This document shows, one piece after another, positions 2,775-23,693 of a stretch of DNA of 32,000 bases (position 1 is its first letter; each line of letters begins with the position of its first letter). A program made the position numbers and the translations under genes. This DNA is from Erysipelothrix inopinata (GTDB lineage: Bacteria; Bacillota_I; Bacilli_A; Erysipelotrichales; Erysipelotrichaceae): NCBI RefSeq assembly GCF_014396165.1, contig NZ_CP060715.1:1620001-1652000 (forward strand), written 5' to 3'. The notes beneath the pieces are model-generated. The model saw nothing but the letters and a program-made list of their open reading frames with translations. It searched no databases and had not been told where the DNA came from.

Positions 2775-4556
2775 ATGTATATAATTCCGTTTGGTTTATT
2801 GCTGATTATGTCAGCCTTTAATAAAAAAATTAGTAAGAAAACTTTCTTAATTTCTTCTGCTGTTATTTTAGCCATCGTATCTTTTTTAAGATTTGGTGTC
2901 GGAGCAGATTACTTTTCTTATGAGTACTTATACAACGAATTAGATGTGAAATCGATAGGTTCGATGTTAGATAGTCTTGTATTTATTGAATTTGGGTTTA
3001 GAGCCTTGATGTATATTAGTAAGATAGTCGGTCTAAGCTATCATACGTTCGCAAGCATAATTTCAATTGCTATTGTGATTTTGACTCTCGCTTGGATTAA
3101 TGATAATTCTGAGAACTATCAACTATCGACCTTACTTTTCTATACCTTATTTTATTTCGTTTGGGCAATTTCAGCATTGCGCCAAGGTTTGGCACTGATT
3201 TTAGCCATGTATTTATTGTTTAATAATAAATACTTCTTTAAAATGTATCAAAAAGTTCTAATTCTTCTAGCTTGTGCTTCTTTACATGTTAGTGTATTGA
3301 TTTTATTACCAATAATCCTACTTAGAGACTACACACCTTCTAAAAAGACGTTGATGATTCTCTTTGGAATCTCATTAGTGATTACGTTTATCCCATTTGG
3401 ATCTATATTAGGAGCATTATCCTCAATTCCTTATATTGGTAAGTTAACACATTATCTCGAAGGATCAGGTCGAGGGTTCTTAGATTTTCCAGGTATTGTT
3501 AGAATTCTGTTCTTTATCGGAATTTGGTTGCATTATGATAAATTAATCGAATCAAAAAACAAGTCTATCCGTGACTTAACACTTTTGAGTCTATATAGTT
3601 TTATTATTTATTTTGTTTTCAAGTTCTCAGAACTTATGGCGGCACGCTTCTCTGTATTTGGATACTTCAGTGTTATAATTATTTTCCCATCTATCGTTAT
3701 GCTATATGAAAAACGTCAGCTACGCATGATGGGTATGGCAGGTTTAATGACATTTTCATCCTTATCATTATATAAAGAAATGAAAACAGTCATTGATCAG
3801 TCAGGATTTAGAGGCGGACTTGTAGAACTTAATAAGAATACAATTCTAAATGCAGATCGTGGTAAATTCTTTAATCAATATAATTTGATTGCTCAACGTA
3901 TTGAACTGTGCAAAGCAAATGAAAAAGAATTCTTTGGTAAGTTCGAAAGTGATGCTATCCCATATGCAGATAAAAATAATCTTGGCGATCACTTCCAATC
4001 CGTGTTCTTCCCTGATACAAATATGTACGGAATTATTAATGATAAAGGGGAGATTGTAGAACGAGGTATTTATCGTTATCGTCCAGAAATATATGGAGAC
4101 ATTGTTGTTGAAGAAACTGAAGGAACATCGTTTAAACGATTCGTTCTAAAAAATATTCGAACAGGAGAGTATGTTCCTGAGGATCAACTTTCAGCAACAA
4201 TTGATAATTTTACAGAAGAAACAAAAATGAGAACCAAATGGATTGATTTTGATCATTATACTTATGAGCAAATGAAAGGATCACTGTTTGCTGAGTTAAT
4301 TCCAGAGGAAGATATCTTAACATCTTCAATTGGTAAGTATGGAAGCCCATTCTTCTATGAAATCGTCGAAGTAACAGCTTATACACAAACTATGTATATT
4401 TATTTAGATGATTATTATAATCCTTTAAATAATAGTATTTACTATAGCATTACACCATACGGATCTAATTTTATTGCAATAGGTAAAACTTCTTGTTCAT
4501 CTGAATACATTAATAGAAACGGGGACATAATATGGATAGAAAAAGAACAGAAATGA
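2775..4556 (+). CDS. EpsG-family membrane protein with a ~250-aa soluble C-terminal extension (WG/KWG-repeat-like)
   Basis: 593 aa. Residues ~1-340 are multi-TM with '[14 protein letters not shown]'. Residues ~345-593 are hydrophilic, with '[16 protein letters not shown]' and '[13 protein letters not shown]' segments. RBS GAAAGGGG lies upstream. Confidence 0.6.
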
Positions 4557-5383
4557 GTGACATTCAATCAGAGGGATTAAAAGTTTTGATTGAATTCGAT
4601 CGAATTTGTAGAAAAAATAATATTAAATATTCGCTCTCGGATGGAACGCTTCTTGGTGCTGTTCGCCATGACGGATTTATTCCGTGGGATGACGATATTG
4701 ACGTGAGTATGACTCGAGAAAGTTTTAATGTATTTGAATCGGTGATTGCAGATGAATTGAGTGATGAATTCTTCTATCAAACGAACGAAACTGACCCTGA
4801 CTATTATGCTCCTCATCCTAAAATTCGTTCAAATAATGCATACTTGAAGGAAAAATGTAATCAAAATATTAACATTCATGAAGGGGTCTGGATTGATATA
4901 TTTGTATTTGATCGTATTCCAACAAATTTAGAAGAGGCTGATGCAATTCAGAATGAAATAAGTAACTTATCGAAGAAAATAGTAAGAATGGTGAATATTT
5001 ATCCGGATGGCATTGGCTCAAAATTGAACCAATTTGTTAAATCAGTACTATTCTATTTCAACAAAATTTTCTATAAGATTAATCCATTACCAAAGAAGTA
5101 TTTTAAACAAAGAGAAGCATTGATCTTAAAAAACAAAGATATCGAGGAATTTGATTCATATGCATTATTAGCTTATAACAGCTCATTTGATGAATATCGA
5201 AGATTAATTCGTGCAAAAGATTCTTTTGAGAACACAATCGAACATAGTTTCGAAGGCTACGATTTCTTAATTTCTGAAAAATACGATGACATCCTCACTA
5301 ACGAATACGGTGATTATATGACTCTTCCAAAGGAAGAAGATCGCGTGTCGAATCATCAGGTTGTCAGCTTTACTAAAGAATAG
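4532..5383 (+). CDS. licD: LicD-family phosphotransferase (phosphocholine/phospho-alcohol transferase)
   Basis: '[28 protein letters not shown]' is the LicD signature. Clear paralog of 8610-9455. An in-frame alternative start at 4553 forms an ATGA overlap with the upstream stop and gives the same N-terminal length as the paralog. Confidence 0.85.
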
Positions 5384-5510: not shown

Positions 5511-7379
5511 ATGAAATTAAAAAAAATATTTATTGTCTTAATTTTAACACTATTATTAACATATGGGTTTCAGGAACTGACCACTGCGAGCTTATTTGAT
5601 TTTGATTTTAAAGTAGCAGCTGATGCTTATATTGAAAACAAACATAATTTTGATTTTAGTTTCAAAATTGTTTTTACTTTGTTCTTAATGATTTTTGTCA
5701 TTTCAAATAATTATCTTACTGGGTTTACAGTTATTACAGTATTGACTTTGGCATTATCTGTTATCAACAATATGAAGATTAATATACTTTTAGAACCTGT
5801 CTTGCCACAGGATTTAGGTGTCTTTGTTAACCTTAATAAGCTCATGGAAATGATGACTCCAGAGCAAGTTTTTGCGACCATTGGGATTGCGGTAGCCTTT
5901 ATTTTAGTTACGGTAGGCGTCATTTTCATTAACAAGAAAGTTTATAACTTTAGAATCTTTGATAAATCCAAACTAATTGCTACAATCAGGGTTTTTTCTT
6001 TGGGAGGCACACTTATCTTTTTATTGTTGTTGTCGCACTATAATTATGAATCTTCTATGATTAAATCATATGCACAAAGAAATGAGCTTTATCTTCAGTA
6101 TAATAGTTGGGATCAGCTTTCTAACTACCGGTTATATGGTATGGTCAACGGTCTTGTACTAAACACAACCGGGGAAAACATTAGCAAACCTGATGATTAT
6201 AATGAAGCTATGATCGATGAAATCTTTGAAAAATATGTATTGAATGCATCAAAAGTTAATGAAACACGTTGGCGCGACGATTTTTCTAATATTAATGTCA
6301 TTACTGTTTTAAGTGAGTCTCTAACGGCAATTTCAGATTTAGAGGCTATTGAAATAAACAATGATAACTTAACCTATTACAGAGATGAAACAGATAAGGT
6401 TCTAATCGGTAATATCTTATCACCAGCATACGGTGGTGGTACTCCAAATACAGAATATGAATTAATTACTTCGATGAGTACGGGTTCTTTAAGTCCGCAA
6501 GTATCTACAGCTTTTCAATCTTTCACAGCGGATCGCACTGAATTACCATCTATTTTTAAACAGATACAATCAGAGGGACGAGAAACAACAAGTTTACATA
6601 GCTACAATTCTAGATTTTATAAGCGTTATGCTACATACCAAAACTTTGGTGTGGATCAAATCCTATTTGATAAGAATATGAGTCATACGGAACCTTACTA
6701 TGAAGATGGATATATTTCTGATGAAGCAACTTTTGCAGAATTTTTTGATATATACCGTGATTCTAATGGTCCGCGTAATTATCATATTGTAACGATGCAA
6801 AATCATGCGCCGTACACTCATGTTTACGACGATACTGAGTTTGTAATTGAAAGTGATAAATTGAGTAGCAAGGAAATAACGCAAACCGTTGCCTATGCAG
6901 AAGGCGTTAAGGAATCTGATCGAGTTTTAAAAGAAGTCATAACCGAATTAAATGAAATTGGCGATCCCTACATATTCTTCGTATATGGAGATCATTTACC
7001 AGGACTCTTTACACCACTTATTTCAGAAAACACCGCTAAGGCAAAACATTCTACACCTTTCTTCTTTGCATCAAACCTTACAGATGCTAAAATTTCCATA
7101 CCTGTTCAAGAAGATATCTCGCTAGCAAACACAACAAACATTATTTTTGATATTGCAGGAGTCGAAATTTCTCCTTATCAAGCACTTGTTTTAGATGTAT
7201 ATTCGGAGTTTCTTTCAATACATCCTTCAGGATATTATCTTTATGGTGCAGATGGACCTGTTTCTAGAGAAGCATTGACAGATGAACAAATTCAGTTAGT
7301 TGATGCTTATAATGCTGTTCAATATGATTTGATTGATGGACATGGCTATGCGCGAAAATATTTAAATAGCGCTCATTAA
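5511..7379 (+). CDS. LtaS-family (LTA synthase-like) sulfatase-domain membrane phosphotransferase
   Basis: 622 aa. N-terminal TM helices are followed by an alkaline-phosphatase-type domain with 'NVITVLSESL', 'MQNHAPY' and 'VYGDHLPG' motifs, as in LtaS-type enzymes. Confidence 0.8.
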   Translation: MKLKKIFIVLILTLLLTYGFQELTTASLFDFDFKVAADAYIENKHNFDFSFKIVFTLFLMIFVISNNYLTGFTVITVLTLALSVINNMKINILLEPVLPQDLGVFVNLNKLMEMMTPEQVFATIGIAVAFILVTVGVIFINKKVYNFRIFDKSKLIATIRVFSLGGTLIFLLLLSHYNYESSMIKSYAQRNELYLQYNSWDQLSNYRLYGMVNGLVLNTTGENISKPDDYNEAMIDEIFEKYVLNASKVNETRWRDDFSNINVITVLSESLTAISDLEAIEINNDNLTYYRDETDKVLIGNILSPAYGGGTPNTEYELITSMSTGSLSPQVSTAFQSFTADRTELPSIFKQIQSEGRETTSLHSYNSRFYKRYATYQNFGVDQILFDKNMSHTEPYYEDGYISDEATFAEFFDIYRDSNGPRNYHIVTMQNHAPYTHVYDDTEFVIESDKLSSKEITQTVAYAEGVKESDRVLKEVITELNEIGDPYIFFVYGDHLPGLFTPLISENTAKAKHSTPFFFASNLTDAKISIPVQEDISLANTTNIIFDIAGVEISPYQALVLDVYSEFLSIHPSGYYLYGADGPVSREALTDEQIQLVDAYNAVQYDLIDGHGYARKYLNSAH

Positions 7380-7423: not shown

Positions 7424-8638
7424 ATGAAAGTCATTATTATTAATTCTGTGGTTGATTATGGTAGCACAGGGAAAATTGTCAGAGATTTGTATGATGAATT
7501 AAAAAATGAAGGCAATGAAGTTAAAATGGTATATGGTAGACATGAACCCAAAGATTTAGTAGATACTTTTGATATATCCGATCGTTTTTCGTCTATGATA
7601 CATTTAGGAATGTCTCGCTTTTTTGGAGGGCATGGATTACATTCAAATAAAGCTACTAAAAATCTAATAGCTTATATTGAGTCATTTAATCCCGATTTAA
7701 TTCATTTGCATAATCTTCATGGATATTACCTTAATGTGCCGATGCTTTTTGATTTTCTTAATAAAAGACCTGATATTAAAATAGTATGGACTCTTCATGA
7801 CTGCTGGGCTTTCAGTGGTAGTTCGGCCTATTTTTCCTTTGATGGTTGCCAGAAGTGGGATGATGGATGTGTTATCTGTAACAATACTAGTACATACCCT
7901 AAGACGATTGCTAAGGGCAAACAGGAACGAAATTTTAAATGGAAAAAAGATAAATTTACTCAAATTAACGATATGGTTATTGTTACTCCTTCGGATTGGC
8001 TCAAAGATTTAACTGAAAAAACATTTCTGAAAAAATATCCGATAAAACGTATTTATAATGGATTTGATACTAATGTTTTTAACCCTGCAGAGAAAGTCAA
8101 CACCGATAAGAAGATTATTTTAGGTGTTTCTAATATTTGGGAAAAAAGAAAAGGATTGGATGATTTTATTAAATTAAATGAACTTATCTCAGACGAATAT
8201 CAAATCATGCTAATTGGACTTTCTGAGAAACAAATTAAAGAATTGCCTTCAAATATAATTGGTATCGAACGTACAGATAATATTGAAGAGCTCGTATCCT
8301 TGTACTCAAGTGCGTATGTGTATTTAAATCTAAGTGTAGAGGAAACCTTAGGGATGACAACTATCGAATCAATTGCTTGTGGTACTCCTGTCATCGTCTA
8401 TAATCAAACAGCAGTTCCCGAAGTCGTAAATGACTGCGTAGGGTTTGTTGTAGAAGCAGGGGACGTTAAACAATTATGGTCGCTTATTGAAAATACTGAT
8501 TTTGATGGCTACAATTCAGATGAATTAAGAGAGTATGGTTTGAAATTTGATAAGAAAAATATGGTAAACAACTATATTAATACATATAAACAACTATTAG
8601 GAGAAAACGATGAATCCAATTCAACAAGAAGAATTTAA
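7424..8638 (+). CDS. Glycosyltransferase family 4
   Basis: 404 aa. Contains 'HLHNLHGYYLN', a Cys cluster 'HDCWAFSG..DGCQKWDDGCVICNN', and C-terminal 'EETLGMTTIESIACGTPVIV' (E-x7-E). RBS AAGGAAGG lies upstream. Confidence 0.75.
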   Translation: MKVIIINSVVDYGSTGKIVRDLYDELKNEGNEVKMVYGRHEPKDLVDTFDISDRFSSMIHLGMSRFFGGHGLHSNKATKNLIAYIESFNPDLIHLHNLHGYYLNVPMLFDFLNKRPDIKIVWTLHDCWAFSGSSAYFSFDGCQKWDDGCVICNNTSTYPKTIAKGKQERNFKWKKDKFTQINDMVIVTPSDWLKDLTEKTFLKKYPIKRIYNGFDTNVFNPAEKVNTDKKIILGVSNIWEKRKGLDDFIKLNELISDEYQIMLIGLSEKQIKELPSNIIGIERTDNIEELVSLYSSAYVYLNLSVEETLGMTTIESIACGTPVIVYNQTAVPEVVNDCVGFVVEAGDVKQLWSLIENTDFDGYNSDELREYGLKFDKKNMVNNYINTYKQLLGENDESNSTRRI

Positions 8639-9455
8639 TATACTTTGCGAGTTTGATCGTATTTGTAAAAAACACAACTTAAAATATTCACTGGGCTATG
8701 GGACGATGCTCGGTGCGGTTAGACATCATGGGTTCATTCCATGGGATGATGATGTTGATGTAATTATGAGTCGAGACGAGTACAATCGTTTTTTGAGTAT
8801 TGTAGATGAAGAATTGAATGATAATTACTCATTTGTTGATAACAAGCGTGAAAAAAACTATTGGTATGGGTTTGGGAAGATTCGTAGTAACAATATTTTA
8901 CTTCCAGAAAAATCAACTGAGTATCTTGGGATTAAACAAGGTGTTTGGATAGATATTTTTCCCTTTGATTCTCTCCCTGATGACACTCATTTAGCTCAAT
9001 TGCAAAGAGATAATTTAAAAAAATACCATAATCATTTTGTAGCATTTGTTTTTACACACCCGCAATCCGGTGATAAATTTCCCAAAAAAATTGTGAAATC
9101 ACTTTTCTGTGGTTTTAATAGAGTTTTTGCAAAAGTAAATCCCACTTTGAAGTCTAATTTTGACAAAATGATTGAGGAAGCAACAAAATACAATAACTCT
9201 AATTCTAAATACTTAAATGGACTGTCATTGAACTTTACGGATAGAGAGTATACAGGTTCAATTATCAGCAAAGATGAAATTGATAATACAATTGAAGTAA
9301 AGTTTGAATCTTCTGAGTTTCCAATTATGTCGTGTTATGACAAGTTTTTGACTGGTATATATGGCGACTATATGTCATATCCTCCTTTAGAAGATCAAAG
9401 GTCTGTTCATGATGTTAGCGAAATGATTGTAGTTAATAATAAGAATATGAAATAA
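8610..9455 (+). CDS. licD: LicD-family phosphotransferase, second copy
   Basis: '[28 protein letters not shown]' plus C-terminal 'GIYGDYMSYPPLEDQRSVH', which parallels '[18 protein letters not shown]' in copy 1. RBS GGAG 7 nt upstream. Overlaps the upstream gene by 29 nt. Confidence 0.85.
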   Translation: MNPIQQEEFNILCEFDRICKKHNLKYSLGYGTMLGAVRHHGFIPWDDDVDVIMSRDEYNRFLSIVDEELNDNYSFVDNKREKNYWYGFGKIRSNNILLPEKSTEYLGIKQGVWIDIFPFDSLPDDTHLAQLQRDNLKKYHNHFVAFVFTHPQSGDKFPKKIVKSLFCGFNRVFAKVNPTLKSNFDKMIEEATKYNNSNSKYLNGLSLNFTDREYTGSIISKDEIDNTIEVKFESSEFPIMSCYDKFLTGIYGDYMSYPPLEDQRSVHDVSEMIVVNNKNMK

Positions 9456-9491: not shown

Positions 9492-9623
9492 ATGGAACCA
9501 ACGTTATTTGTTCTTTTATTTACCATTCTAGTAGGGTCTGTAATTGATAATTATCGTATCAGAAAAGAACTTCAAGATATAAAGAAAGTACTGTCCGAAA
9601 TTAGTCGAAATATGAATGAATAA
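9492..9623 (+). CDS. Small (43 aa) single-TM protein, below the ORF-track cutoff
   Basis: ATG 9492 is preceded by GAAAGGAGG. Translation: MEPTLFVLLFTILVGSVIDNYRIRKELQDIKKVLSEISRNMNE, a hydrophobic N-terminus with a charged tail. A terminator follows directly. Confidence 0.45.
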   Translation: MEPTLFVLLFTILVGSVIDNYRIRKELQDIKKVLSEISRNMNE

Positions 9624-9625
9624 AC

Positions 9626-9650
9626 AAAACATCTCTAACGAGGTGTTTTT
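9626..9650 (+). terminator. Rho-independent terminator closing the glycopolymer operon
   Basis: Stem aaaacatctc / gaggtgtttt (one G-U pair), loop taac, T-run. Confidence 0.7.
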
Positions 9651-9665
9651 AATTGTTAGCTAATC

Positions 9666-9695
9666 TTGAATTATACTACATGATGTAGTATAATT
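9666..9695 (+). promoter_or_regulatory. Sigma-A-type promoter (TTGAAT-17-TATAAT) overlapped by a 27-bp perfect palindrome; BlaI/MecI/CopY-type operator
   Basis: AATTATACTACAT-G-ATGTAGTATAATT (9669-9695) has 13-bp arms and the core ACTACA-N3-TGTAGT, the same core as the two boxes at 13763-13807. -35 at 9666-9671, -10 at 9689-9694. Confidence 0.6.
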
Positions 9696-9820: not shown

Positions 9821-9849
9821 TTGTTACAGAGTCTTAAGTGAGTTATAAT
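9821..9849 (+). promoter_or_regulatory. Candidate second promoter (TTGTTA-17-TATAAT) proximal to the YidC-like gene
   Basis: Hexamers at 9821-9826 and 9844-9849 with a 17-nt spacer. No operator overlaps it. Confidence 0.35.
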
Positions 9850-9896: not shown

Positions 9897-10597
9897 ATGC
9901 TAGATATTTTAACAGAGCCGTTCTCTAGATTTATAGGGGCTATTTTTGTTTGGACCCTTGGCATTGTTCATGATCATGGACTTGCACTAATTGTCTTAAG
10001 TATAGTTGTTAACATTATACTTTCCCTTTTTATCATTTTGCTGACAAAATTGAGAAGAAAGAGAAGCAAGCTCAATTACAAATGAAACCGAAGTTGGATG
10101 AATTTAAAAGTGTGTATAAAGGATATGAGCTGTATCTATACACAAATAACGTATATCGATTAAATGACTATCATCCTTCATATGCACTTCGTGGACTTGT
10201 TAGCTTGCTAATTCAGATTCCTTTCTTTATGGGTGCGTATGCATACTTATCCCATTTCACTGGATTTGAAGGTGTATCATTTTTATTTTTAAGTGACTTA
10301 TCGAAACCAGATGGACTCTTATCCATAGGTACTTTAAGCATTAATATTTTACCGTTTGTTATGACGGCCATTAACTTAGCATCAGGTTATGTTTATGCTA
10401 AAGATATGACTAAGAGCGAAAAAATTACGCCTATTGTGATAGCTCTGTTCTTCTTGGTAGTGTTATATAATTCGCCATCTAGTTTACTAGTTTATTGGAC
10501 ATGTAATAATATTTTCAGTCTCATTAAAACGCTTGTTTATGCCAAACTAGATAAACAAAAAGCAGAAAAAATTGCAGGAGGTGCGGTAGAATGTTAG
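9897..10597 (+). pseudogene. YidC/Oxa1-family membrane insertase-like gene split by a frame change (ORFs 9897-10085 and 10082-10597)
   Basis: ORF1 'GLALIVLSIVVNIIL' matches YidC TM1. The ORF2 frame is open from 10013 and reads 'FPFYHFADKIEKKEKQAQLQMKPKLDEFK...LVSLLIQIPFFMGAY', the YidC amphipathic helix and TM2 pattern. A -1 shift between 10013 and 10085 (T5 run at 10027-10031) restores one ~233-aa protein. Confidence 0.6.
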
Positions 10598-13500
10598 TTT
10601 TGTACATTGATCCAGGAACTGGAAGTATGCTTATTTCCGCAACAATTGCGTTATTCTCTGTTGCATTCTTTATGTTAAAAGGAGTTATCTACCGTAAGTT
10701 TAGTATTGGAGGCGACAAGGGAGAAGCCTTGGATCCTTCAAAAAAATATGGCTTAGTTTTCTATTCAGAAGGAAAACAATATTGGAATGTGTTCCAACCA
10801 TTGGTAGAGGAAGCAAGCCGTCGTAATATACCTGCAACATACTTTACAAGTGATAAAGAGGACCCAGGTTTAACTGCTAATCTCGAAGGTATTGAAGCTA
10901 AATTCATTGGCTCAGGACGTGAAGCGTATTATGTTTTAAACCGTCTTAATGCCGATGTTGTTGTTATGACGACACCAGGTCTTGATGTCTTGGAAATTAA
11001 ACGAAGTAAAAATGTTAAACATTATGTACACGTAACTCACTCTGCTGGAAGTGTTAGTGAATATAAAGCGTATGGTACTGACTATTTTGATAGTGTTCTT
11101 GTCGGAGGTGATGGGGACTACAGCTTAATTCGAGAATTAGAATCTAAGCGTAATATTAATGTTAAAGAAATAGAAATAATTGGTAACACATATCTCGATG
11201 TGATGCGAACTAACCTAAAGAATGAAAGTTATGAATATACAATTTTCGAAGAAAAAAGACCAACTATTCTATTATCGCCAACTTGGGGCGACCATGGCTT
11301 GCTAACAAAATTTGGAAATGAACTTCTATCCAAATTAGAAGAGACAGATAAATTTAACATTATTATTCGCCCTCATCCGCAATCTTTTATTTCTGAAGCG
11401 CAAGTTATGGAAGAATTGATGACTAAATTCCCTAATAATGAACATCGTGTTTGGAATAGAGATGTTCAGAACCTTAAAGCAATGGCACATGCAGATATCA
11501 TGATTAGTGATTTCTCAGGTATTATTTTCGATTTCTATGCACTGTTTAAAAAACCTATATTGACTCTCAATGGGCAATTGGAAAAGCGCGGTCGTGATGC
11601 AATAGATGTTGATGGTGATGCATGGCATATCGAATTACTCGACGTTATTGGAAAAAATGTATCAGATAAAGATATCCCTAATTTAATTGACATCATTGAT
11701 CAGACACTTGAAAATGAAGCTGTTAATAATAGTGCAGGAGATACACTATCACTCTCTGATAAATATCCAAATGAAGCGGGTACTCGAGGTATGGATTTCA
11801 TTTCTAAGAAACTAGAAGCAGTTAAAAGTAAAGAGACAGAAAACGAAGTCTCCAATGTTGCTTCACAGCCACTTCTTAATGAAAACTATACATTTAATAA
11901 TCGTTGTGAAGGGGTTCAAGGAAACTGGATTACGAAGTTTATTAAATCAATTTTTAATCCGAACATGCTCATTCAGCTTGCGATGGGATCTGCATTGTTA
12001 GTTGGATATACTTATTTAGGTAAGAGATATCTTCCAGAAGGCGGATTGAACTCATTATTCTTAATAGGGATTTTATCAAAAACAGTCATGATTACAATTG
12101 GACTATTACTAATATTTCTATTATTTACATGGGTTCAAGGAAAAGGTAAGATTTCACTTCAGAAACAATCAGAACCAATCGATTGGAAAGATTTATTCTT
12201 TGTTGCCTTACCAATGACACCGATCATCCAATATATCATAGCTAATCAAGATATCTTGGACTTCAAGAGTTCTGTGTTAGTATTTGCAACGTTTGCTTTA
12301 ATAGCAGCAATTGCTATCGTAATTCTTCCTTGGTTTATGAGTACTGTTCTTGCTAAGGATGTTTCAGTTGCTGTCACAATGTCGTTCTTATTTATTGTAT
12401 TCAATATGGCTAGTTTCGGTAAAGTTACTGAACCAAAAACAATATTCTGGATTCTTCTTGGATTGTGTCTTGCTATATTCTTAATATTATTCTTAGACAA
12501 AAAGAAATTACTAATAATTATTTCCTTGATTTTCTTCGTCACAAACTTTGTTACTTCAGTGACCAAAGGGTCAAATAATGAAAAAGAATTTGTAAATGAA
12601 ACAACAGAATACAATACACGAATTGCTGAGATGACTGAAGGTAAAGAAGTAAAACATACGCCTGATGTGTATATCATTATTTATGATGCATACTCTAATC
12701 AACAAACATTAGATGCATACGGTATTGACCACAGTGATCAATTTAACTATATGCTTGATAAAGGCTTCGCGATTTATGATGGTACGTACTCTGTAGGTCC
12801 TTACTCGATCATTGCGATGTCACATTTATTAAACCCTCAACCAATTCCTGAAAGCTCAACTGAATTCAGACGTATGCTAGCGGGAGATGGTTCTGCAGTT
12901 CAAGAATTTAATAAACTTGGATACTTTACGAACTCTGTCCATGAATCAGATTACATGACAAAAGACTTCGATCCGAAATTTGATTATTCTTATCCAGATA
13001 ACAGTTCCTCAATTGCGCCGCATAAGATTATTAATAAAGCAATTTTAGAGGGAGAGTTCAGGTTCGATGTGGAGTTCTCTGAAAATACATATCCTGATTT
13101 TATGGTTGCAAAACGGAAAGTGCTAGCGCAAAATCGTAAAGAACCAGAGTTCCTATATACTCATGGAAGTAATCCTGGTCATACTCAAAATTCGGGCGTA
13201 TTAACGCAGGCTGATTTTGATCAACATGTGTTCGCATTAGAATCTGCCAATGTGGAAATGCGTGATGATTTTAATGCGCTTGATATTGATAACCGTGAAG
13301 ATGCCATTGTTATTATTGCGGGTGATCACGGACCATACCTTACAAAAACAGGGATTGGATTAGGTGACTTCCCACTATCAGAAATTGATCGATTAGACAT
13401 TCAAGATCGTTACGGAGCGCTTCTTGCAATTCACTGGCCTAAAGGTGTGGATCCAACTCGCTTTGATATTCGTACAGTTCAAGATGCTTTACCTGCAGTT

Positions 13501-13677
13501 CTTGCTTATATGTATGATGACGACGAACTTTTTGATCAAATTCGAATGGGTCGTGATATCTTAGCACCTTACACAGTAGGGGAAGCGAATGTTATTGATG
13601 GCAAGATTGTCGGAGGTCCTAATGATGGAGAACCACTCTATCTTGACCGAAAAGTTAGATTTAAAAATGCTAACTGA
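10591..13677 (+). CDS. Tri-modular envelope enzyme: TagB/TagF-like CDP-glycerol glycerophosphotransferase + polytopic membrane block + alkaline-phosphatase-superfamily (sulfatase/EptA/LtaS-like) domain
   Basis: 1028 aa with GGAGG 9 nt upstream. N-terminal TM. Residues ~50-400 carry 'ILLSPTWG', 'IIRPHPQS' and 'ADIMISDFSGIIFDFYALFKKPIL' (TagF pattern). Residues ~455-650 form about 6 TM helices. Residues ~690-1028 carry 'DVYIIIYDAYSNQ', 'LYTHGSNPGH' and 'IIAGDHGPYL'. Confidence 0.75.
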   Translation: MLVLYIDPGTGSMLISATIALFSVAFFMLKGVIYRKFSIGGDKGEALDPSKKYGLVFYSEGKQYWNVFQPLVEEASRRNIPATYFTSDKEDPGLTANLEGIEAKFIGSGREAYYVLNRLNADVVVMTTPGLDVLEIKRSKNVKHYVHVTHSAGSVSEYKAYGTDYFDSVLVGGDGDYSLIRELESKRNINVKEIEIIGNTYLDVMRTNLKNESYEYTIFEEKRPTILLSPTWGDHGLLTKFGNELLSKLEETDKFNIIIRPHPQSFISEAQVMEELMTKFPNNEHRVWNRDVQNLKAMAHADIMISDFSGIIFDFYALFKKPILTLNGQLEKRGRDAIDVDGDAWHIELLDVIGKNVSDKDIPNLIDIIDQTLENEAVNNSAGDTLSLSDKYPNEAGTRGMDFISKKLEAVKSKETENEVSNVASQPLLNENYTFNNRCEGVQGNWITKFIKSIFNPNMLIQLAMGSALLVGYTYLGKRYLPEGGLNSLFLIGILSKTVMITIGLLLIFLLFTWVQGKGKISLQKQSEPIDWKDLFFVALPMTPIIQYIIANQDILDFKSSVLVFATFALIAAIAIVILPWFMSTVLAKDVSVAVTMSFLFIVFNMASFGKVTEPKTIFWILLGLCLAIFLILFLDKKKLLIIISLIFFVTNFVTSVTKGSNNEKEFVNETTEYNTRIAEMTEGKEVKHTPDVYIIIYDAYSNQQTLDAYGIDHSDQFNYMLDKGFAIYDGTYSVGPYSIIAMSHLLNPQPIPESSTEFRRMLAGDGSAVQEFNKLGYFTNSVHESDYMTKDFDPKFDYSYPDNSSSIAPHKIINKAILEGEFRFDVEFSENTYPDFMVAKRKVLAQNRKEPEFLYTHGSNPGHTQNSGVLTQADFDQHVFALESANVEMRDDFNALDIDNREDAIVIIAGDHGPYLTKTGIGLGDFPLSEIDRLDIQDRYGALLAIHWPKGVDPTRFDIRTVQDALPAVLAYMYDDDELFDQIRMGRDILAPYTVGEANVIDGKIVGGPNDGEPLYLDRKVRFKNAN

Positions 13678-13762: not shown

Positions 13763-13808
13763 TACTACAACATGTAGTGTTGACAGAATTAACTACATGT
13801 TGTAGTAT
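13763..13808 (+). promoter_or_regulatory. Autoregulated promoter with two BlaI-type operators flanking -35 and overlapping -10
   Basis: Box 1 is TACTACAACATGTAGT (13763-13778) and box 2 is ACTACATGTTGTAGTA (13792-13807). Each has the ACTACA-N3-TGTAGT core, and they are mutual reverse complements. TTGACA (13780-13785), 17 nt, TAGTAT (13803-13808). Confidence 0.7.
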
Positions 13809-13833
13809 GTCTATGTCGACATGTGGAGGTACT

Positions 13834-14202
13834 ATGAAAACTATAAGTGATGCAGAACTTGAAGTCATGCAATTGATTTGGGACCATGAGGGGGAACCTA
13901 TGACTGTAAAAGAAATTCAACAAAATCTTATTTCGGAAAAACAATGGAAAATTACTACAGTTCAGACCTTTATTAAGCGTCTTACTGACAAAGGCTATCT
14001 TAATGTTGAAAAAATTAATGGTTTAAATAAATATAATGCCAAGGTGAGTCGCGATGCTTTTAGTTCAAGCGAAACCAAGAAAATTATAAATACTATTCAT
14101 TCTGGATCAGTGAAGGATTTCGTTGCTTCACTTATAGATTCTGATGATTTAACGTCAGATGATATTGATGATCTTCGAAACTGGTTGAATGATCATGAGT
14201 AA
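13834..14202 (+). CDS. BlaI/MecI/CopY-family winged-helix transcriptional repressor
   Basis: 122 aa from ATG 13834 (GGAGG upstream). 'ISDAELEVMQLIWD...MTVKEIQQNL...WKITTVQTFIKRLTDKGYL' is the typical Penicillinase_R pattern. The track start at 13777 is non-ATG and lies inside the operator/promoter. Confidence 0.85.
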   Translation: MKTISDAELEVMQLIWDHEGEPMTVKEIQQNLISEKQWKITTVQTFIKRLTDKGYLNVEKINGLNKYNAKVSRDAFSSSETKKIINTIHSGSVKDFVASLIDSDDLTSDDIDDLRNWLNDHE

Positions 14203-15835
14203 TATAGGATTTCATCTTATAGTTATGTCTTTTGTGACATCGATAGTTTATGGTGTTGTTGCACTATGCATAAAACTAAATAATAAATCTTTAAAAGAAC
14301 AAACTAAATATCGAGTATTTCTTTTAACCATGTTACTCTTAGTTTTACCTTTACATCTTGTGTTTCCACAAGTAAATATTGTCAATAACAATAGCATTGA
14401 CAACTTAACCATGAAACCAGATGTTACCTTGATTTCTGCAGAAAAATCTGTAATTGAGACAAAAACAAGTGTGGATTTTCAAAATGAAAATCTTAATAAT
14501 ACCAGTCCTTTCAATGAAGTTAGTACACAAAGCGCATCACTCTATATCTATGTATTTGGTGCAATAATTCTTTTAGGCAGTTACTTAATTTCAATTCTAC
14601 GTTTTAATACTCGAATTCGTAAATTTTTGAAAAGAAATGAAATTAAATCAATTGCTGATAAACCTGAGATATACATTATTGACGAAAAAATGAGCCCGTT
14701 TGTATTTGGATTAATTAATCCAAAGATAATCGTTCCAAAGTATTTAAAAGAAGAAGAAAACTTCCAATTAATATTGGAACACGAACAGACACATATCAAA
14801 CGCCATGATGTGTTGATTAAGCATCTCGCTAACCTGCTCACAATTATTCACTGGTTTAATCCAGCAATCTATCTACTTAAGCGTGATTTATTTAATACCA
14901 TGGAATCTTCGTGTGATGAAGCAGTTCTCGAAAACTGCTCAACTTTGGAGAGAAAAGGTTATGCAACTCTAGTTTTAGATACACTTGAAACAAATATTAT
15001 GAATTCCAGAAAATATTCTTTAGGATTTGCATCAAGTAATAAAGAAAAAACGAAGGAGAGAATTTATTTGATTATGAATGATTCTAAGAAAAGTAAATTT
15101 AAAAAAATATCTACTTATTTTACAATCGGTTTTGCGCTAATCATTACACTGTTCATTTCGAGAAACTTAGTATTTGCTAATACGTTAAATGCACCTGAAC
15201 CTGTAGAAGATATTACTGATGTAATGGGTGATGAGAATGATTCTTCGGATACTAATAATATTTCCAATGAAACAGATGAACTGGATGAAACATTAGAAAC
15301 GACAGAAACTGAAGAAATCGTCGAAACTGAAGAAAAGAACGAAGAGACTGTAGTGCCAGAAGAAAAAACTGTCGTTGAAGAGAAGCTACAGCAAGTTGAG
15401 AAAAAGGAAATCATACAAAAAGTCGAAGAACCTAAAAAAGAAATAAACGATCCCAATCGATGGGCAACTAATCCTGTAAGAGGATCAATTATCTTATGTG
15501 AGTGGGGATGCTATAGCGGTCACTCAGGAACTGACTTTAGTATGGACCCTCAAGTTGAAGGCGTTAATATCTATCCAATTGCGAAGGGTGTTATTATTAA
15601 AGTTGATTATAATGAGGGTGGCTACGGTAATTATATTGTCATTCAGCACGATAATGGGTTTAAATCAACTTATGCTCATATGCAAAGTCTCGACCATAAA
15701 GTTGGGACGAAAGTAACAACTGAAACTGTGATTGGAAAAATAGGAATGACTGGAAGAACGACACAACCACATGTTCACGTGGAAGTTCATAATCCTGAAA
15801 ATGCCAAAGTTGATTTAGGTAAATTTTTAAAATAA
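14189..15835 (+). CDS. BlaR1/MecR1-like M56 signal-transducing metalloprotease with a C-terminal M23 (LytM-type) peptidase domain
   Basis: 548 aa. Its start overlaps the blaI-like stop (ATGATCATGAGTAA). M56 motif 'LILEHEQTHIKRHD'. Late TM 'ISTYFTIGFALIITLFISRNLVFA'. An E/T/K-rich linker precedes M23 motifs 'GHSGTD' (HxxxD) and 'HVHVEVH' (HxH). Confidence 0.85.
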   Translation: MIMSNIGFHLIVMSFVTSIVYGVVALCIKLNNKSLKEQTKYRVFLLTMLLLVLPLHLVFPQVNIVNNNSIDNLTMKPDVTLISAEKSVIETKTSVDFQNENLNNTSPFNEVSTQSASLYIYVFGAIILLGSYLISILRFNTRIRKFLKRNEIKSIADKPEIYIIDEKMSPFVFGLINPKIIVPKYLKEEENFQLILEHEQTHIKRHDVLIKHLANLLTIIHWFNPAIYLLKRDLFNTMESSCDEAVLENCSTLERKGYATLVLDTLETNIMNSRKYSLGFASSNKEKTKERIYLIMNDSKKSKFKKISTYFTIGFALIITLFISRNLVFANTLNAPEPVEDITDVMGDENDSSDTNNISNETDELDETLETTETEEIVETEEKNEETVVPEEKTVVEEKLQQVEKKEIIQKVEEPKKEINDPNRWATNPVRGSIILCEWGCYSGHSGTDFSMDPQVEGVNIYPIAKGVIIKVDYNEGGYGNYIVIQHDNGFKSTYAHMQSLDHKVGTKVTTETVIGKIGMTGRTTQPHVHVEVHNPENAKVDLGKFLK

Positions 15836-15957: not shown

Positions 15958-17718
15958 ATGAGGCAAGCATTATTTGATTTATTGCGTATCAAGGCGATGA
16001 ACCCACACTTCAAATCGCAACGTGATTTCAAGGAAAAACTTGATTTTTCGTTAGGAAAGATAAACACACTTATAAATGAAGCAATCGAGTTGGATTACAT
16101 GAGAACTCCCGGCTACGATTTAACTCCTAAAGCACTTGAATTTCTAGAGAAATTTAAGGTAGATAATGCTATAATTCTTGCCGCTGGAATCAATGCTCAA
16201 GACACGACTACAAATTATCGTTATCCTAAAGGTATGTATGAAATAAACTCTGTACCTCTTGTTGAACGTCAGATTCAACAATTAAATGAAGTTGGTATTT
16301 ATGATATCACTATTGTAGTAGGGTATGCCAAAGAATCCTTTGAGTATCTTGTAAGTAAATATAATATTGATTTAGAGTATAATGACCAGTTTTCGCATGG
16401 GAATAATATTTTAAGTTTAAAGTGTGTTGCAAATAAATTAAAGAACTCATATGTATTAGACTCAGATATTTTTATGCCCATAAATCTATTCTCAATTTAC
16501 GAGTTAAATTCATGGTGTGCAACTGTAAAATCCAACGATGCAACAAATGCCTGGATTCTAAAAGTTGGATCACACGATAAAGTTGAAAATATTCTTTATG
16601 GCGGAAACAAAGGCAATATTATGACAGGACCAGTCTTTATTAATAGTGCATTTTCTGCGAAACTTGTCGAGGACATGAATCAGGACCTCATTGCTAAAAG
16701 TTCAAGATATTTGTTCTGGGAAGAAATATTCATTAATAGAATCAAGGAATATGAATTGTATGCACGTTTTTTTACTGCTGAGAAAATATTGGAGTTTGAG
16801 AGTTTAAGCGAAGTCCAAAAGTATGATACTTCGTACCTTCAATCTTTAAATGATGAAATCAAGAGTATTATCTCTACAAGTGTCGAGTGGGATGTTTCGT
16901 CTATAAGAAACATCGAATTGTTAAAAAGAGGAGTAACAAATGAAACGTATTCATTTATAATAAATGAAGAAAAATATTGTATTCGAATTCCACGTGGAAG
17001 GTCTGAATCCCTTGTTTCATATTCTAGAGAAAACAGTGTTTATGAGGCTATGAAAGATTCGAATCTTAATGATGATGTTATTTTCTTGGATTTAGACAAA
17101 GGCTATAAAATATCTCGATATATCGAAGGCGAAATGCATGAAATAACGCTTACTGAAAAAATAAATACATTAAAGAAAGCACATCAAAGAAATATTGAGG
17201 TTAAGGAATCATTTGACTTGATGAGTGGAATTCGAAATCTTAGAAAATTGTGCGTACGTCGTGATGCGATTATGTACCGTGATTATAAGGAAGTAAATAA
17301 GAATATCGTTTTGATTTCCAATTTATTAAAAGGAATTAATCGCCCTGCAGTTATTTGTCATGGAGATCCAGTTGAAGGTAATTATATCAAGTTGCAAGAT
17401 GGAAGTATTGTTATGATAGATTGGGAATATGCTGGGATTGCTGATCCGCTTCTTGATGTAGCGATGCTTGCAGTGTTCGAGCCACGTTCTTCTAAGGAAA
17501 TTGATGATATATTGACGCTGTATTTAGAGAGAAACGCAAACAATGAGGAACAGGCCGTATTTTACTCCTATGTAGCTCTATGCGGCTTCTTTTGGGCTCT
17601 CTGGTCACAGTACGAACAATCTCTTGGAGAAAATTTTGGAATGTACAGTATTTATCAGTATCAGTATGCCCGAAGCTACTCTGAGAAAGCGTTAGACGCA
17701 TTAAAGAAATTAGGTTAA
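15958..17718 (+). CDS. Three-part protein: wHTH-like N-terminus + LicC-like nucleotidyltransferase + choline/ethanolamine kinase (LicA-like)
   Basis: 586 aa. Residues ~70-290 align by eye with pneumococcal LicC ('IVVGYAKESFEYLVSKYNIDLEYNDQF...NSYVLDSDIF'). The C-terminus has kinase motifs 'CHGDPVEGNYI' (HxDxxxxN) and 'IDWEYAG'. Confidence 0.75.
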   Translation: MRQALFDLLRIKAMNPHFKSQRDFKEKLDFSLGKINTLINEAIELDYMRTPGYDLTPKALEFLEKFKVDNAIILAAGINAQDTTTNYRYPKGMYEINSVPLVERQIQQLNEVGIYDITIVVGYAKESFEYLVSKYNIDLEYNDQFSHGNNILSLKCVANKLKNSYVLDSDIFMPINLFSIYELNSWCATVKSNDATNAWILKVGSHDKVENILYGGNKGNIMTGPVFINSAFSAKLVEDMNQDLIAKSSRYLFWEEIFINRIKEYELYARFFTAEKILEFESLSEVQKYDTSYLQSLNDEIKSIISTSVEWDVSSIRNIELLKRGVTNETYSFIINEEKYCIRIPRGRSESLVSYSRENSVYEAMKDSNLNDDVIFLDLDKGYKISRYIEGEMHEITLTEKINTLKKAHQRNIEVKESFDLMSGIRNLRKLCVRRDAIMYRDYKEVNKNIVLISNLLKGINRPAVICHGDPVEGNYIKLQDGSIVMIDWEYAGIADPLLDVAMLAVFEPRSSKEIDDILTLYLERNANNEEQAVFYSYVALCGFFWALWSQYEQSLGENFGMYSIYQYQYARSYSEKALDALKKLG

Positions 17719-21513: not shown

Positions 21514-22512
21514 ATGAAAGCAGAAACAATAAAAGAATATCTGAAAAAGAACAATAATACGATTGAAAATTTTTTCGAAAGTAGTGATGACTTTAATGAA
21601 GTAACAACTACATCAAACTTTTTTATAGATGGGTATGAGAACTTTTTCAACAATATTAAAAAGGTAATCAAACATGATGTCAGTGAAATTAGTGATGTAG
21701 CGTTTGTAAATGATGGGTTAACAAACCGATCATTTCGTTTTAAAGTAGAAGATAAGTACTATATTTATCGTCATCCTGGAGTAGGTACAGATGAATATAT
21801 TCACCGTGAAGGTGAAGCATTTGCTGAAAAAATTGCAGCGAAGTATGGCCTTGATGATACCTTTATTTTTGTGGATCCTGTAGAAGGATGGAAAGTTTCT
21901 TATTATATTATGGATTCTCATACACTAGACTATAATAATGAAACAGAAGTAACAACTGCACTCCAAGCAATTAAACGTTTCCATGATTTACAAATCAAAG
22001 GAGATTTTGATTTCGGTATCTGGGAAAGAGCTCTTGAATTCCATGGTAAAATTAACCATCTTGGAGAGCAACAATTTAATGATTACTATGAATTAAATGA
22101 AAAAATGTCGCGTGTCTACGAACTTGTTGAGTCGGATGGTGTCGAAGCTGTCTTATGTCATTGTGATTTCTATGACCCTAACATTTTATTTAAAGATGGT
22201 CGTATGTATCTCATTGATTGGGAATATGCAGGAAATGATGATCCGGCATGTGATCTCGGTACATTTATTGCTTGCTCTGAATATACCTTGGATGATGCAA
22301 ATCGTATCTTTGATATTTATGAGGGAGAAACGATGTCTGATGAACGCCGTCGACACTTCTTTGGTTATGTAGCCTTGTCATCTTACTATTGGTTCGAATG
22401 GGCAATTTTCCAAGAATCAAATGGATCGATGGTTGGTCACTACTTAAAACTTTGGTATGACTATTCTCATAAGTATGCGAATCATACTCTAGAATTGTAT
22501 GGTGATCGTTAA
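21514..22512 (+). CDS. Choline/ethanolamine kinase (LicA-like)
   Basis: 332 aa. 'NRSFRF', 'CHCDFYDPNILF' (HxDxxxxN) and 'IDWEYAGNDDPACDL' are choline-kinase motifs. Stop TAA overlaps the next ATG (TAATG). Confidence 0.8.
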   Translation: MKAETIKEYLKKNNNTIENFFESSDDFNEVTTTSNFFIDGYENFFNNIKKVIKHDVSEISDVAFVNDGLTNRSFRFKVEDKYYIYRHPGVGTDEYIHREGEAFAEKIAAKYGLDDTFIFVDPVEGWKVSYYIMDSHTLDYNNETEVTTALQAIKRFHDLQIKGDFDFGIWERALEFHGKINHLGEQQFNDYYELNEKMSRVYELVESDGVEAVLCHCDFYDPNILFKDGRMYLIDWEYAGNDDPACDLGTFIACSEYTLDDANRIFDIYEGETMSDERRRHFFGYVALSSYYWFEWAIFQESNGSMVGHYLKLWYDYSHKYANHTLELYGDR

Positions 22513-23693
22513 TGATAATTGTAAGTAAAGTTATTATTTATATTATTATGGCTTGTGCAGCGGCGGGATGTATTGCATCAATTGTGAAACCTGAATCTGA
22601 GCTTGGCCAACAATTCATGGAAGGTATCAATGCAATTGGAAGTATTTTTCTTCCTGTTGCAGGGATTATGGCATCGCTGCCTATTCTATCAAAACTAGTA
22701 ACTGTTGGTATTGGGCCTGTATTTAAACTCTTCGGAGCAGATCCTGCAATTGCAGCGACAACTTTACTTGCTGTAGATATGGGTGGATATCAACTTGCGG
22801 AATCTTTAGCACAAACTAAAGAAGCATGGATTATTGCTACGATAACGGGTTACATGGCTGGAGCTACAATTGTATTCAGTTTACCCATAGCCTTAAAGAT
22901 TGTTAAAGAGAAATTCCATAAACAACTGTCTTTAGGTATGATGATTGGTTTTATTACCATTCCTGTGGGAGTTTTCATTTCATGTATCATGATTATGATC
23001 ACAAATCCTGCAATTCGTGAGGTTGTCTCAACAGATCCAAATGCAGCAACTGTCGTCCTTTCAATGACGTTCCAACAAATCATCATCAATCTCATTCCTC
23101 TCATAATCGTATGTTCATTACTTGCATTCGGCTTATGGAAGAATTCAAATGTTATGATTCGGGGGTTTCAAGCATTTGGTAAATTCGTAGATGCTTTTAC
23201 AAAAATCGTATTTACATTAGTAGTTATTGAATACTTTACTTCAGTATTCTCGACGTTGTTTGGTGGATGGATTTTCGATCCAATCATTGCTGACTCTATT
23301 GATCAAAATAGAGCATTAGAAGTAGCCGGTTATATTGGTATGATGTTATGTGGGGCATTCCCAATGGTTTATCTCATTCAAAAATTCGCATCCAAGCCAA
23401 TTGAGAAAATGAGTGAAAAAATGAATCTTTCTAGTAATTTCGCTACAGGAATTCTTGCTGCTACTACAAACGTGATCGCTTTGTTCTCAATGATTGATGA
23501 TTCAATGGACGATCGTGATATTGTATCACTTATTGGATTCTCGGTCTGTGGAGCATTCCTTATTGGTGACCACTTAGCATTTACTGCAAACTTTCAACCG
23601 AACCTTATTGTCCCTGTAATGCTTGGCAAATTAGGTGCAGGTATCTTAGCAGTGGTAATTGCTCGCAAATTTGTTAAGGGTCAACTACAATAG
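22512..23693 (+). CDS. eutH: EutH-family ethanolamine permease
   Basis: 393 aa polytopic protein. 'LLAVDMGGYQLAESLA' matches E. coli EutH 'LLACDMGGFFLAKELA', and 'GDHLAFTANF' matches 'GDHLGFAAAN'. Confidence 0.85.
   Translation: MIIVSKVIIYIIMACAAAGCIASIVKPESELGQQFMEGINAIGSIFLPVAGIMASLPILSKLVTVGIGPVFKLFGADPAIAATTLLAVDMGGYQLAESLAQTKEAWIIATITGYMAGATIVFSLPIALKIVKEKFHKQLSLGMMIGFITIPVGVFISCIMIMITNPAIREVVSTDPNAATVVLSMTFQQIIINLIPLIIVCSLLAFGLWKNSNVMIRGFQAFGKFVDAFTKIVFTLVVIEYFTSVFSTLFGGWIFDPIIADSIDQNRALEVAGYIGMMLCGAFPMVYLIQKFASKPIEKMSEKMNLSSNFATGILAATTNVIALFSMIDDSMDDRDIVSLIGFSVCGAFLIGDHLAFTANFQPNLIVPVMLGKLGAGILAVVIARKFVKGQLQ

Follow-up and report, generated by a model that had tools for sequence, protein, structure and literature searches.

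Teichoic-acid-type polymers are made either by TagF-like enzymes inside the cell, with export through ATP-binding cassette (ABC) or Wzx transporters, or by LtaS-type enzymes outside it, from bulk phospholipid. A gene of Erysipelothrix inopinata encodes what look like catalytic domains of both kinds in one polypeptide, which raises the question of what an enzyme reaching across the membrane in this way could do. We analysed a 32,000-nucleotide (nt) stretch of contig NZ_CP060715.1 (positions 1,620,001 to 1,652,000; hereafter the window, with ~33% G+C throughout), in which this fusion gene occupies positions 10591..13677 of the plus strand (ATG start, 1028 amino acids (aa), stop codon included). 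The gene sits in a surface-glycopolymer locus. Its product is predicted to be a single polytopic membrane enzyme with one catalytic domain on either side of the membrane, a reading well supported by domain architecture and predicted topology. Whether the protein teams up with a YidC paralog to carry out phosphodiester transfer on a surface glycopolymer in two steps across the membrane is, in our judgement, an even call.

The original prediction described a fusion of a cytoplasmic TagF-type domain, a membrane block and an extracytoplasmic alkaline-phosphatase-superfamily (AP-type) domain. We found the open reading frame (ORF), its length and all six peptide motifs exactly as described: SPTWG at residues 229-233, RPHPQS at 260-265 and ISDFSGIIFDFY...KPIL at 305-324, and, in the C-terminal part, IIYDAYSNQ at 696-704, HGSNPGH at 858-864 and AGDHGPYL at 910-917. 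The three-part architecture held as well, since a database search recovered 48 full-length homologs (990-1042 aa, 43-100% identity) with the same domain order, from Erysipelothrix, Clostridiales metagenome-assembled genomes (MAGs) and Sphaerochaeta/Spirochaetaceae. A sister strain (L086, 98.9% DNA identity; loci and proteins are cited by L and P numbers) likewise has the gene uninterrupted, on an independent contig. The two copies differ by 24 substitutions, 23 of them synonymous and one changing an amino acid (V827A), which indicates strong purifying selection on the fusion gene. Megablast of the gene against plasmids gave no match.

Could the long ORF be an artefact of a frameshift or misassembly that joined two genes? 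The neighbouring YidC-like gene does have a homopolymer indel in the window, and the fusion gene is split into products of 245 and 798 aa in one relative. Nevertheless, the 48 homologs, which come from independent assemblies and span several phyla, share the uninterrupted architecture, as does the 98.9%-identical contig. This refutes the explanation, to which we give almost no credence. The split gene lies at 5989-9077 of L005, from the complete genome of Erysipelothrix sp. HDW6A. A Clostridiales MAG (L009, 1060-8834) has two tandem pairs of YidC-like and fusion genes.

The cytoplasmic TagF-like domain covers aa ~50-422 (10738..11856, plus strand), as delimited by Pfam, alignment to the capsule polymerase Cps3D, Foldseek and invariant alignment columns. 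The sole Pfam match on the fusion protein is PF04464 (aa 186-326, 38.4 bits against a cut-off of 22.1, E 9.3e-10), which covers profile positions 152-292 of 367. This family consists of glycerophosphotransferases (TagF/TagB/TarF) that act from cytidine diphosphate (CDP)-glycerol on poly(glycerophosphate), and TagF-class enzymes take an alcohol-phosphate from a CDP-activated donor and attach it to a hydroxyl group. In PDB, the fusion protein matched by sequence only the TagF-like Cps3D (8qoy), in an alignment that spans the PTW, R-x-H and (S/T)D(F/Y)S...D motifs. Residues S229-P-T-W232, R260, H262-P263-Q264, S306-D307 and D314 are invariant among the 48 homologs. The AlphaFold2 model has a GT-B-like domain at aa ~50-420, with beta and alpha elements alternating over aa 53-375, and Foldseek matched enzymes of the glycosyltransferase-B (GT-B) fold as well as 8qoy (E ~1e-7). 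Profile match, Cps3D alignment, fold and invariant motifs all bear out the identification of this domain as TagF-type. The TagF-like subfamily that carries a YIDPGTGS anchor (described below) is also found fused to a choline/ethanolamine kinase (P0051), to a GT4 glycosyltransferase (P0052/P0053) or to a CPBP-type intramembrane protease domain (P0055/P0057), which hints that the donor is possibly not limited to CDP-glycerol.

Assignment of the C-terminal domain (aa 686-1028, 12646..13674, plus strand) to the extracytoplasmic side and the AP superfamily draws on the AlphaFold2 model, Foldseek, conservation and PF00884 matches in family members. The domain itself matched nothing in Pfam, NCBIfam or PDB by phmmer or family-profile hmmsearch, which returned only spurious TetR matches. 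When it was aligned with GacH-type and YidC-sulfatase sequences using hhalign, the global mode was meaningless and the local mode gave a probability of 5%. The full-length AlphaFold2 model has an alpha/beta domain at 690-1028 with a predicted local distance difference test (pLDDT) score above 90. With a domain-only model (pLDDT 89.6, predicted TM-score (pTM) 0.90), Foldseek returned 254 PDB matches with E <= 1e-3, the top 50 all from the AP superfamily. Matches include S1 sulfatases (E 1.7e-11), EptC (E 1.9e-10, TM-score 0.55), LtaS (E 4e-10), LtaP, EptA and YejM/PbgA, the last with the highest TM-scores (0.57-0.60). The full-length model aligned over ~600 columns with full-length PbgA, EptA and MCR-1 (TMq 0.21-0.23 for EptA/PbgA). 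Furthermore, close relatives of the domain (profile E <= 1e-100) pass the Pfam Sulfatase model PF00884 (P0114 with 33.8 bits and P0131 with 30.1 bits; cut-off 25). We regard membership of the AP superfamily as confirmed through predicted fold and transitive homology, not through a direct model match. The claim of the original prediction thus stands on fold and on relatives that pass PF00884, while the expectation of a sequence-model match for this domain does not. A failure to match any AP-superfamily model had been named as grounds for rejection; that is literally what this sequence gives, but fold and transitive homology overturn it.

Conservation points to a candidate catalytic set. Position 699, which closes the first strand, is D/E in 48/48 homologs; positions 734 and 739 are S/T in 48/48, with 739 at the N-terminus of the next helix; H858, H864, D912-H913 and K919 are invariant. 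We propose D699, S734/S739, H858, H864, D912-H913 and K919 as putative catalytic residues, with 739 at the canonical nucleophile position. Their order parallels the SE / GGT / NH / GDH motifs of GacH and LtaS, which are also present in a GacH homolog encoded in the window, and their predicted secondary-structure positions correspond to the LtaS, GacH and EptA sites. The GDHG and PGH anchors align with GacH D711/H712 and H650, although at only 5% hhalign probability. T732 was also considered as the nucleophile and rejected, being Ile or Ala in 7/48 homologs. LEGEFRFD, GDHGPYLTK and DIQDR are invariant motifs specific to the family.

PbgA/YejM proteins are non-enzymatic relatives of membrane AP-superfamily phosphotransferases. 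It is conceivable that the external domain is a non-catalytic sensor of this type, which would read the state of the envelope or polymer and regulate the TagF-like enzyme across the membrane. The top TM-scores of the YejM/PbgA periplasmic domains and the ~600-column alignment with full-length PbgA fit such a role. Full conservation of the metal, nucleophile and accessory residues over 48 homologs is unexpected for a pure regulator, and Foldseek E-values are better for true enzymes (sulfatases, EptC and LtaS), so we consider a sensor quite improbable.

The protein begins with an anchor element (aa 1-36, 10591..10698, plus strand) that comprises a near-invariant Y5-I-D7-P8-G9-T10-G11-S12, a transmembrane (TM) helix (aa 8-36 in the AlphaFold2 model) and basic residues. 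The consensus Y-[IL]-D-P-G-[TS]-G-S followed by a TM helix heads the TagF-like modules of these systems, except in a clade of YidC-TagF fusions, whose TagF module is without it. The same element occurs as signal-peptide-bearing mini-proteins beside otherwise free-standing genes for the membrane and AP-type part. It follows a cleavable Sec signal peptide in ~20 mini-protein homologs and an external sulfatase domain in P0073, both of which place the N-terminus of the anchor outside. Firmicute-type members carry the anchor without a signal peptide. An inverse correlation between an anchor signal peptide and a YidC-like gene was rejected, given that Gram-negative loci L067, L069, L070 and L021 have both. 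No Pfam model matches the element, and literature searches on the DPGTGS motif gave nothing relevant. The mini-proteins share a Sec signal peptide ending in AxA, a mature N-terminus Y-[ILM]-D-P-G-[TS]-G-S, one TM helix and a charged tail; they are found at L019 250-480, L030 2464-2694, L032 1559-1813 and L063 6975-7232, and also in L034, L038, L053, L064, L076, the Pelagibacteraceae loci L024/L055/L059 and others.

Between the two catalytic domains lies a seven-helix TM block (aa 457-664, 11959..12582, plus strand), delimited by AlphaFold2 helices, hydropathy and positive-inside counts and preceded by a predicted amphipathic helix at aa 446-454. About six TM helices had been predicted; the model instead has one anchor helix plus seven at 457-664. 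Conserved residues of the block are P541, P544, Y548, N552-Q553-D554 in an outer loop, and N605-M606, and no Pfam or NCBIfam model shows sequence similarity to it. Over the 48 homologs, lysine and arginine number 9.7 per sequence in predicted cytoplasmic loops versus 2.5 in predicted external loops. Helix count, the positive-inside rule and the external N-terminus of the anchor provide good support for a predicted topology with the TagF-like domain inside and the C-terminal domain outside, and so for the earlier expectation that the two catalytic domains lie on opposite sides.

Directly upstream of the fusion gene is a YidC-like partner gene (9897..10597, plus strand), which overlaps the fusion gene start by 7 nt. 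In the window it is split into ORFs at 9897..10085 (62 aa) and 10082..10597 (171 aa) by a one-T deletion in a T-run at ~10020 relative to L086; inserting one base restores a 233-aa ORF, which is intact in sister L086 (98.9%) and in relative L080 (85%). A YidC-like gene of 220-240 aa, overlapping by 4-7 nt, was found directly upstream of every full-length fusion gene examined (L001-L004, L006-L011, L080-L082 and L086). This is the conserved neighbour that had been anticipated, and the two genes are probably translationally coupled. A search with the YidC-like protein returned mostly ~228-aa stand-alone proteins and added no architecture information.

The partner may have no role beyond that of a dedicated insertase or chaperone, which would translocate the acidic YIDPGTGS N-tail and assemble the fusion protein but move no lipid-linked intermediate. 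Short-tailed N-out helices are classic YidC substrates, and the anchor of Firmicute-type members comes without a signal peptide. The partner aligns over the whole five-helix core of B. halodurans YidC2 (3WO6) and passes the Pfam model 60KD_IMP (68.6 bits, cut-off 35). On the other hand, it falls under every curated NCBIfam YidC cut-off (TIGR03592 72-84 bits versus 84.3), and the groove arginine (R72 of B. halodurans YidC2), which matters for the insertase function of Gram-positive YidC, has been substituted throughout the partner clade: by Asn in the window, L003, L005-L011 and L070, by Ser in L001, L004 and L069, and by Thr in L067 and L002. The YidC-TagF fusion clade has Lys at this position, and it keeps YidC even though its TagF module has no anchor to insert; similarly, Gram-negative members retain the YidC module despite Sec signal peptides on their anchors. 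A role confined to insertion is possible, then, but rather unlikely in our view. Insertases including YidC have been reported to scramble lipids (PMC11047089), which makes a conduit role for the partner plausible, though not demonstrated.

The association of the three modules extends well beyond this arrangement. At least five permuted fusions draw on the TagF-like, YidC-like and AP-type modules. A TagF-like gene is followed by a YidC-TM-AP fusion in L067, L069 and L070 (Colwelliaceae, Puniceicoccaceae and Neptunomonas); YidC-TagF fusion proteins (P0076-P0108) had an adjacent sulfatase-type membrane protein in 3/3 sampled loci; and single proteins combine the modules as YidC-TM-Sulfatase-anchor-TagF (P0073) or Sulfatase-YidC-TagF (P0081). 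L002 (5059-13039) holds two tandem trios, a YidC-Sulfatase fusion with a TagF-like gene and then a YidC-like gene paired with a TagF-TM-AP gene. Such 'Rosetta-stone' permutations in unrelated lineages argue strongly for joint action of the three modules, and they support the functional coupling of inner and outer domains that the covalent link had suggested. Literature searches on YidC with TagF and teichoic, and on fusions of TagF-like and sulfatase domains, gave nothing relevant.

It should also be noted that the membrane block and AP-like domain, which were always found together by their own domain hidden Markov models (HMMs) and are here termed TM-AP, form a separate unclassified family of mostly free-standing proteins. 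An exhaustive profile search gave 340 representative clusters at E <= 1e-30, mostly of 570-600 aa, and a scan of GTDB species representatives gave 75 loci. The family occurs in Chloroflexota, the Planctomycetota-Verrucomicrobiota-Chlamydiota (PVC) group, Lentisphaerae, Parcubacteria, Krumholzibacteriota, Actinomycetota, Pelagibacteraceae, Gammaproteobacteria and one Bathyarchaeia MAG, and its members are named only 'hypothetical protein' in the sources. Pfam enrichment over 129 neighbours of free-standing TM-AP genes yielded only scattered methyltransferases and glycosyltransferases.

Clustering recovered a ~460-aa partner that had escaped the Pfam screen through its near-zero Pfam signal. It is encoded directly upstream of TM-AP and forms a three-gene unit with the mini-protein and TM-AP in 11 loci (Chloroflexota-type; alignment A4). 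Its N-terminal ~260 aa match nothing recognised, and its C-terminal half is weakly similar to S-adenosylmethionine (SAM)-dependent methyltransferases (DLGANTG). The possibility that it is TagF-like was rejected. The gene lies at L019 477-1856, L020 513-1922, L025 5812-7233, L030 2684-4057, L032 1806-3176, L034 4212-5582, L038 5833-7212 and L045 5865-7241, and also in L053, L063 and L076. Since anchor and TM-AP stay constant while the neighbouring enzyme is TagF-like in some lineages and methyltransferase-like in others, the cytoplasmic partner enzyme varies by lineage.

How might the two domains cooperate? In the two-step transfer that we propose, the TagF-like domain would work at the inner face and assemble a phosphodiester-linked unit or short chain on an acceptor embedded in the membrane. 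The resulting lipid-linked intermediate would cross beside or through the seven-helix block and the hydrophilic groove of the YidC-like partner. Outside, the AP-type domain would attack the phosphodiester through a covalent Ser/Thr-phosphate intermediate and hand the phospho-alcohol or chain to a final acceptor on the capsule- or teichoic-acid-like glycopolymer of the surrounding locus. The lipid-linked intermediate, donor, acceptor, step order, membrane passage and role of the YidC-like protein are what we infer in this scheme.

Several observations weigh against it. Genes for CDP-glycerol or CDP-ribitol synthesis (glycerol-3-phosphate cytidylyltransferase; TagD or TarIJ) were not found in the window; the E. 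urinaevulpis locus L003 does contain a TagD-like gene. For the external domain there is no direct significant AP-superfamily sequence match, the GacH-type profile-profile probability is 5%, and the putative mapping of catalytic residues rests on motif order and predicted secondary structure. The full-length AlphaFold2 model, computed from a 48-sequence alignment (mean pLDDT 84.7, pTM 0.55), has low confidence at residues 1-40 and does not fix the relative placement of anchor and domains. The frameshift in the YidC-like gene may be a sequencing error, or it may be a recent inactivation, with the partner dispensable in this strain. Finally, most TM-AP members have no TagF-like or YidC-like gene within 8 kb, and 11 TM-AP loci are paired with the methyltransferase-like gene instead, so the external module does not in general need a TagF-made donor.

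This last pattern is also what would be expected if the two enzymes were independent and merely shared a polypeptide, with the fusion ensuring only co-localisation and equal dosage. The TagF-like domain would then add an alcohol-phosphate to a lipid-linked repeat unit inside, and the AP-type domain would decorate the exported polymer from bulk phospholipid, as GacH, LtaS and EptA do. Free-standing TM-AP members with heterogeneous neighbours and no TagF-like gene nearby are in line with bulk-lipid use, and to our knowledge all characterised membrane AP-superfamily transferases (LtaS, EptA and GacH) use ordinary phospholipids. Moreover, the window encodes a separate GacH homolog (5511-7379, 622 aa, an LtaS-family membrane protein; E 1e-28 to 5wcx, the streptococcal phosphoglycerol transferase GacH), showing that decoration of this kind belongs to the locus and that a conventional external enzyme adding glycerol-phosphate is already present beside the fusion protein. 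Co-localisation has difficulty, however, in explaining repeated independent fusions and tight gene overlaps in distant phyla, and the anchor element ties cytoplasmic partner enzymes to TM-AP even when they are separately encoded. We consider independent action unlikely but a serious contender; it is the main rival to the two-step machine, with the insertase-only partner and the PbgA-like sensor less well supported.

Further genes of the window belong to the same surface-glycopolymer locus. Upstream are two EpsG-type proteins (491-1567 and 2775-4556), two GT4 glycosyltransferases (1564-2760 and 7424-8638) and two LicD-type phosphotransferases (4532-5383 and 8610-9455), which come closest in NCBIfam to a cholinephosphotransferase but score below its cut-off. 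The second EpsG-family protein has 593 aa, with an EpsG match at aa 23-336 only and ~250 C-terminal residues outside any family match. After the second LicD gene come a 43-aa ORF with one hydrophobic helix (9492-9623; MEPTLFVLLFTILVGSVIDNY...), also called as a gene in L086, and a terminator-like hairpin with a 10-bp stem (9626..9649, plus strand). Promoter-like sites at 9666-9694 and 9821-9849 lie upstream of 9897. This arrangement suggests that the YidC-like and fusion genes form their own two-gene transcription unit, although the hairpin and promoter sites are known only from consensus matches, which were no more numerous than in shuffled controls.

Downstream, positions 13777-15835 encode a BlaI-type repressor and a BlaR1 (M56) sensor to which an M23 peptidase domain is fused. 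In L081/L082, from Erysipelothrix MAGs, the BlaI/BlaR1 pair lies upstream of the YidC-like gene instead, which points to a mobile regulatory cassette inside the locus. Further on are a cytidylyltransferase-choline-kinase fusion (15958-17718), a second choline-type kinase (21514-22512), EutH (22512-23693) and, on the minus strand, a 606-aa fusion of a nucleotidyltransferase and a CobD-like decarboxylase (27026-28846; CobD-like 154 bits, below cut-off). The CobD-like domain has a threonine-phosphate decarboxylase/aminotransferase fold, and the 606-aa fusion recurs in otherwise different loci (L001/L002 at ~21.5 kb, L081/L082 at 14.6 kb). It may make a nucleotide-activated amino-alcohol phosphate and so be a candidate source of the donor. 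The activation genes near the fusion gene are of the choline, ethanolamine or amino-alcohol type; the same head-group genes accompany the homolog in the Erysipelothrix MAGs (L081/L082), and in more distant loci the YidC-like and fusion pair adjoins phosphonate (phosphoenolpyruvate (PEP) mutase) genes. The Erysipelothrix relatives are animal pathogens or commensals, and their surface polymers bear phosphocholine-type decorations that matter in host interaction.

A broader proposal, which we offer tentatively and hold to be doubtful as it stands, is that the YidC-like paralog, the TagF-like enzyme and the seven-helix AP-type enzyme constitute an unrecognised system that would handle phospho-alcohol groups by 'load, flip, transfer'. 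In the first step, the TagF-like domain would load a CDP-activated head-group onto a dedicated membrane lipid, the head-group being glycerol-phosphate or a choline, ethanolamine or amino-alcohol phosphate or phosphonate. The YidC paralog, lacking the insertase arginine, would scramble the loaded lipid, and the AP-type domain would pass the group on to a surface glycan. Docking of varied loading enzymes (TagF-like here, methyltransferase-like in Chloroflexota) to the export-and-transfer module would fall to the YxDPGTGS helix. If true, this would be the first recruitment of a YidC-family protein to glycopolymer biosynthesis, and the Gtr/Arn/YfhO glycosylation systems would gain a counterpart based on phosphodiesters. 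More generally, the fusion of an inner and an outer enzyme, consistently accompanied by a specialised YidC paralog, suggests a third route beside the two named at the outset, by way of a dedicated lipid-linked phospho-intermediate that is produced inside the cell and consumed outside it.

The component folds (TagF-like GT-B, the LtaS/EptA/GacH-type AP superfamily and YidC/Oxa1) were already known. Literature and annotation searches gave no description of their covalent and operonic combination, of the 7-TM AP-like family, of the arginine-less YidC clade or of the YxDPGTGS element. Three of the observations made here go beyond the original prediction: the TM-AP family is independent and widespread, the first 35 residues of the fusion protein are separately conserved, and the YidC-like gene is frameshifted. 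The uncharacterised elements that surfaced are a 7-TM AP-superfamily ectoenzyme family extending from Chloroflexota to SAR11, the arginine-less YidC clade and the single-pass YxDPGTGS element.

Compared with TagF, TagB and TarF (PF04464), the inner domain shares the GT-B fold, the PTW, R-x-H-P and (S/T)D(F/Y)S...D motifs, a cytoplasmic membrane-associated site and a surface-glycopolymer locus. It differs in that only the central part of the Pfam profile matches, in its N-out YIDPGTGS helix anchor and in the seven TM helices and external domain fused to it. The outer half resembles LtaS/LtaP, GacH and EptA/MCR-1/EptC in having a polytopic N-terminal membrane part followed by an external alpha/beta domain of AP fold. 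Its candidate catalytic residues follow the motif order of LtaS, GacH and EptA, with an acidic residue behind strand 1, then Ser/Thr where a helix begins, His and Asp-His, and Foldseek comparisons with membrane AP-superfamily transferases give E 1e-10 to 1e-8 and TM-scores of 0.5-0.6. In contrast to the LtaS/EptA type, it has seven TM helices where those proteins have five, with sequence similarity of the TM part undetectable, and its soluble domain falls below the PF00884 threshold and is missed by all NCBIfam and PDB sequence searches. The partner has the five-helix core of YidC/Oxa1 and a 60KD_IMP match above threshold, whereas its clade lacks the groove arginine, has a new conserved Arg/Lys in an 'ALRG' insertion and invariably occurs in linkage or fusion with TagF-like and AP-type modules. 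Finally, the GtrA/GtrB/GtrX, CsbB/GtcA/YfhO and ArnC/ArnEF/ArnT systems offer an analogy of logic only, and a hypothetical one, in that a lipid carrier is loaded in the cytoplasm, a small membrane protein moves the carrier and an external transferase acts on a surface polymer. Folds and chemistry are entirely different, with glycosyl transfer in those systems and phosphodiester transfer proposed here.

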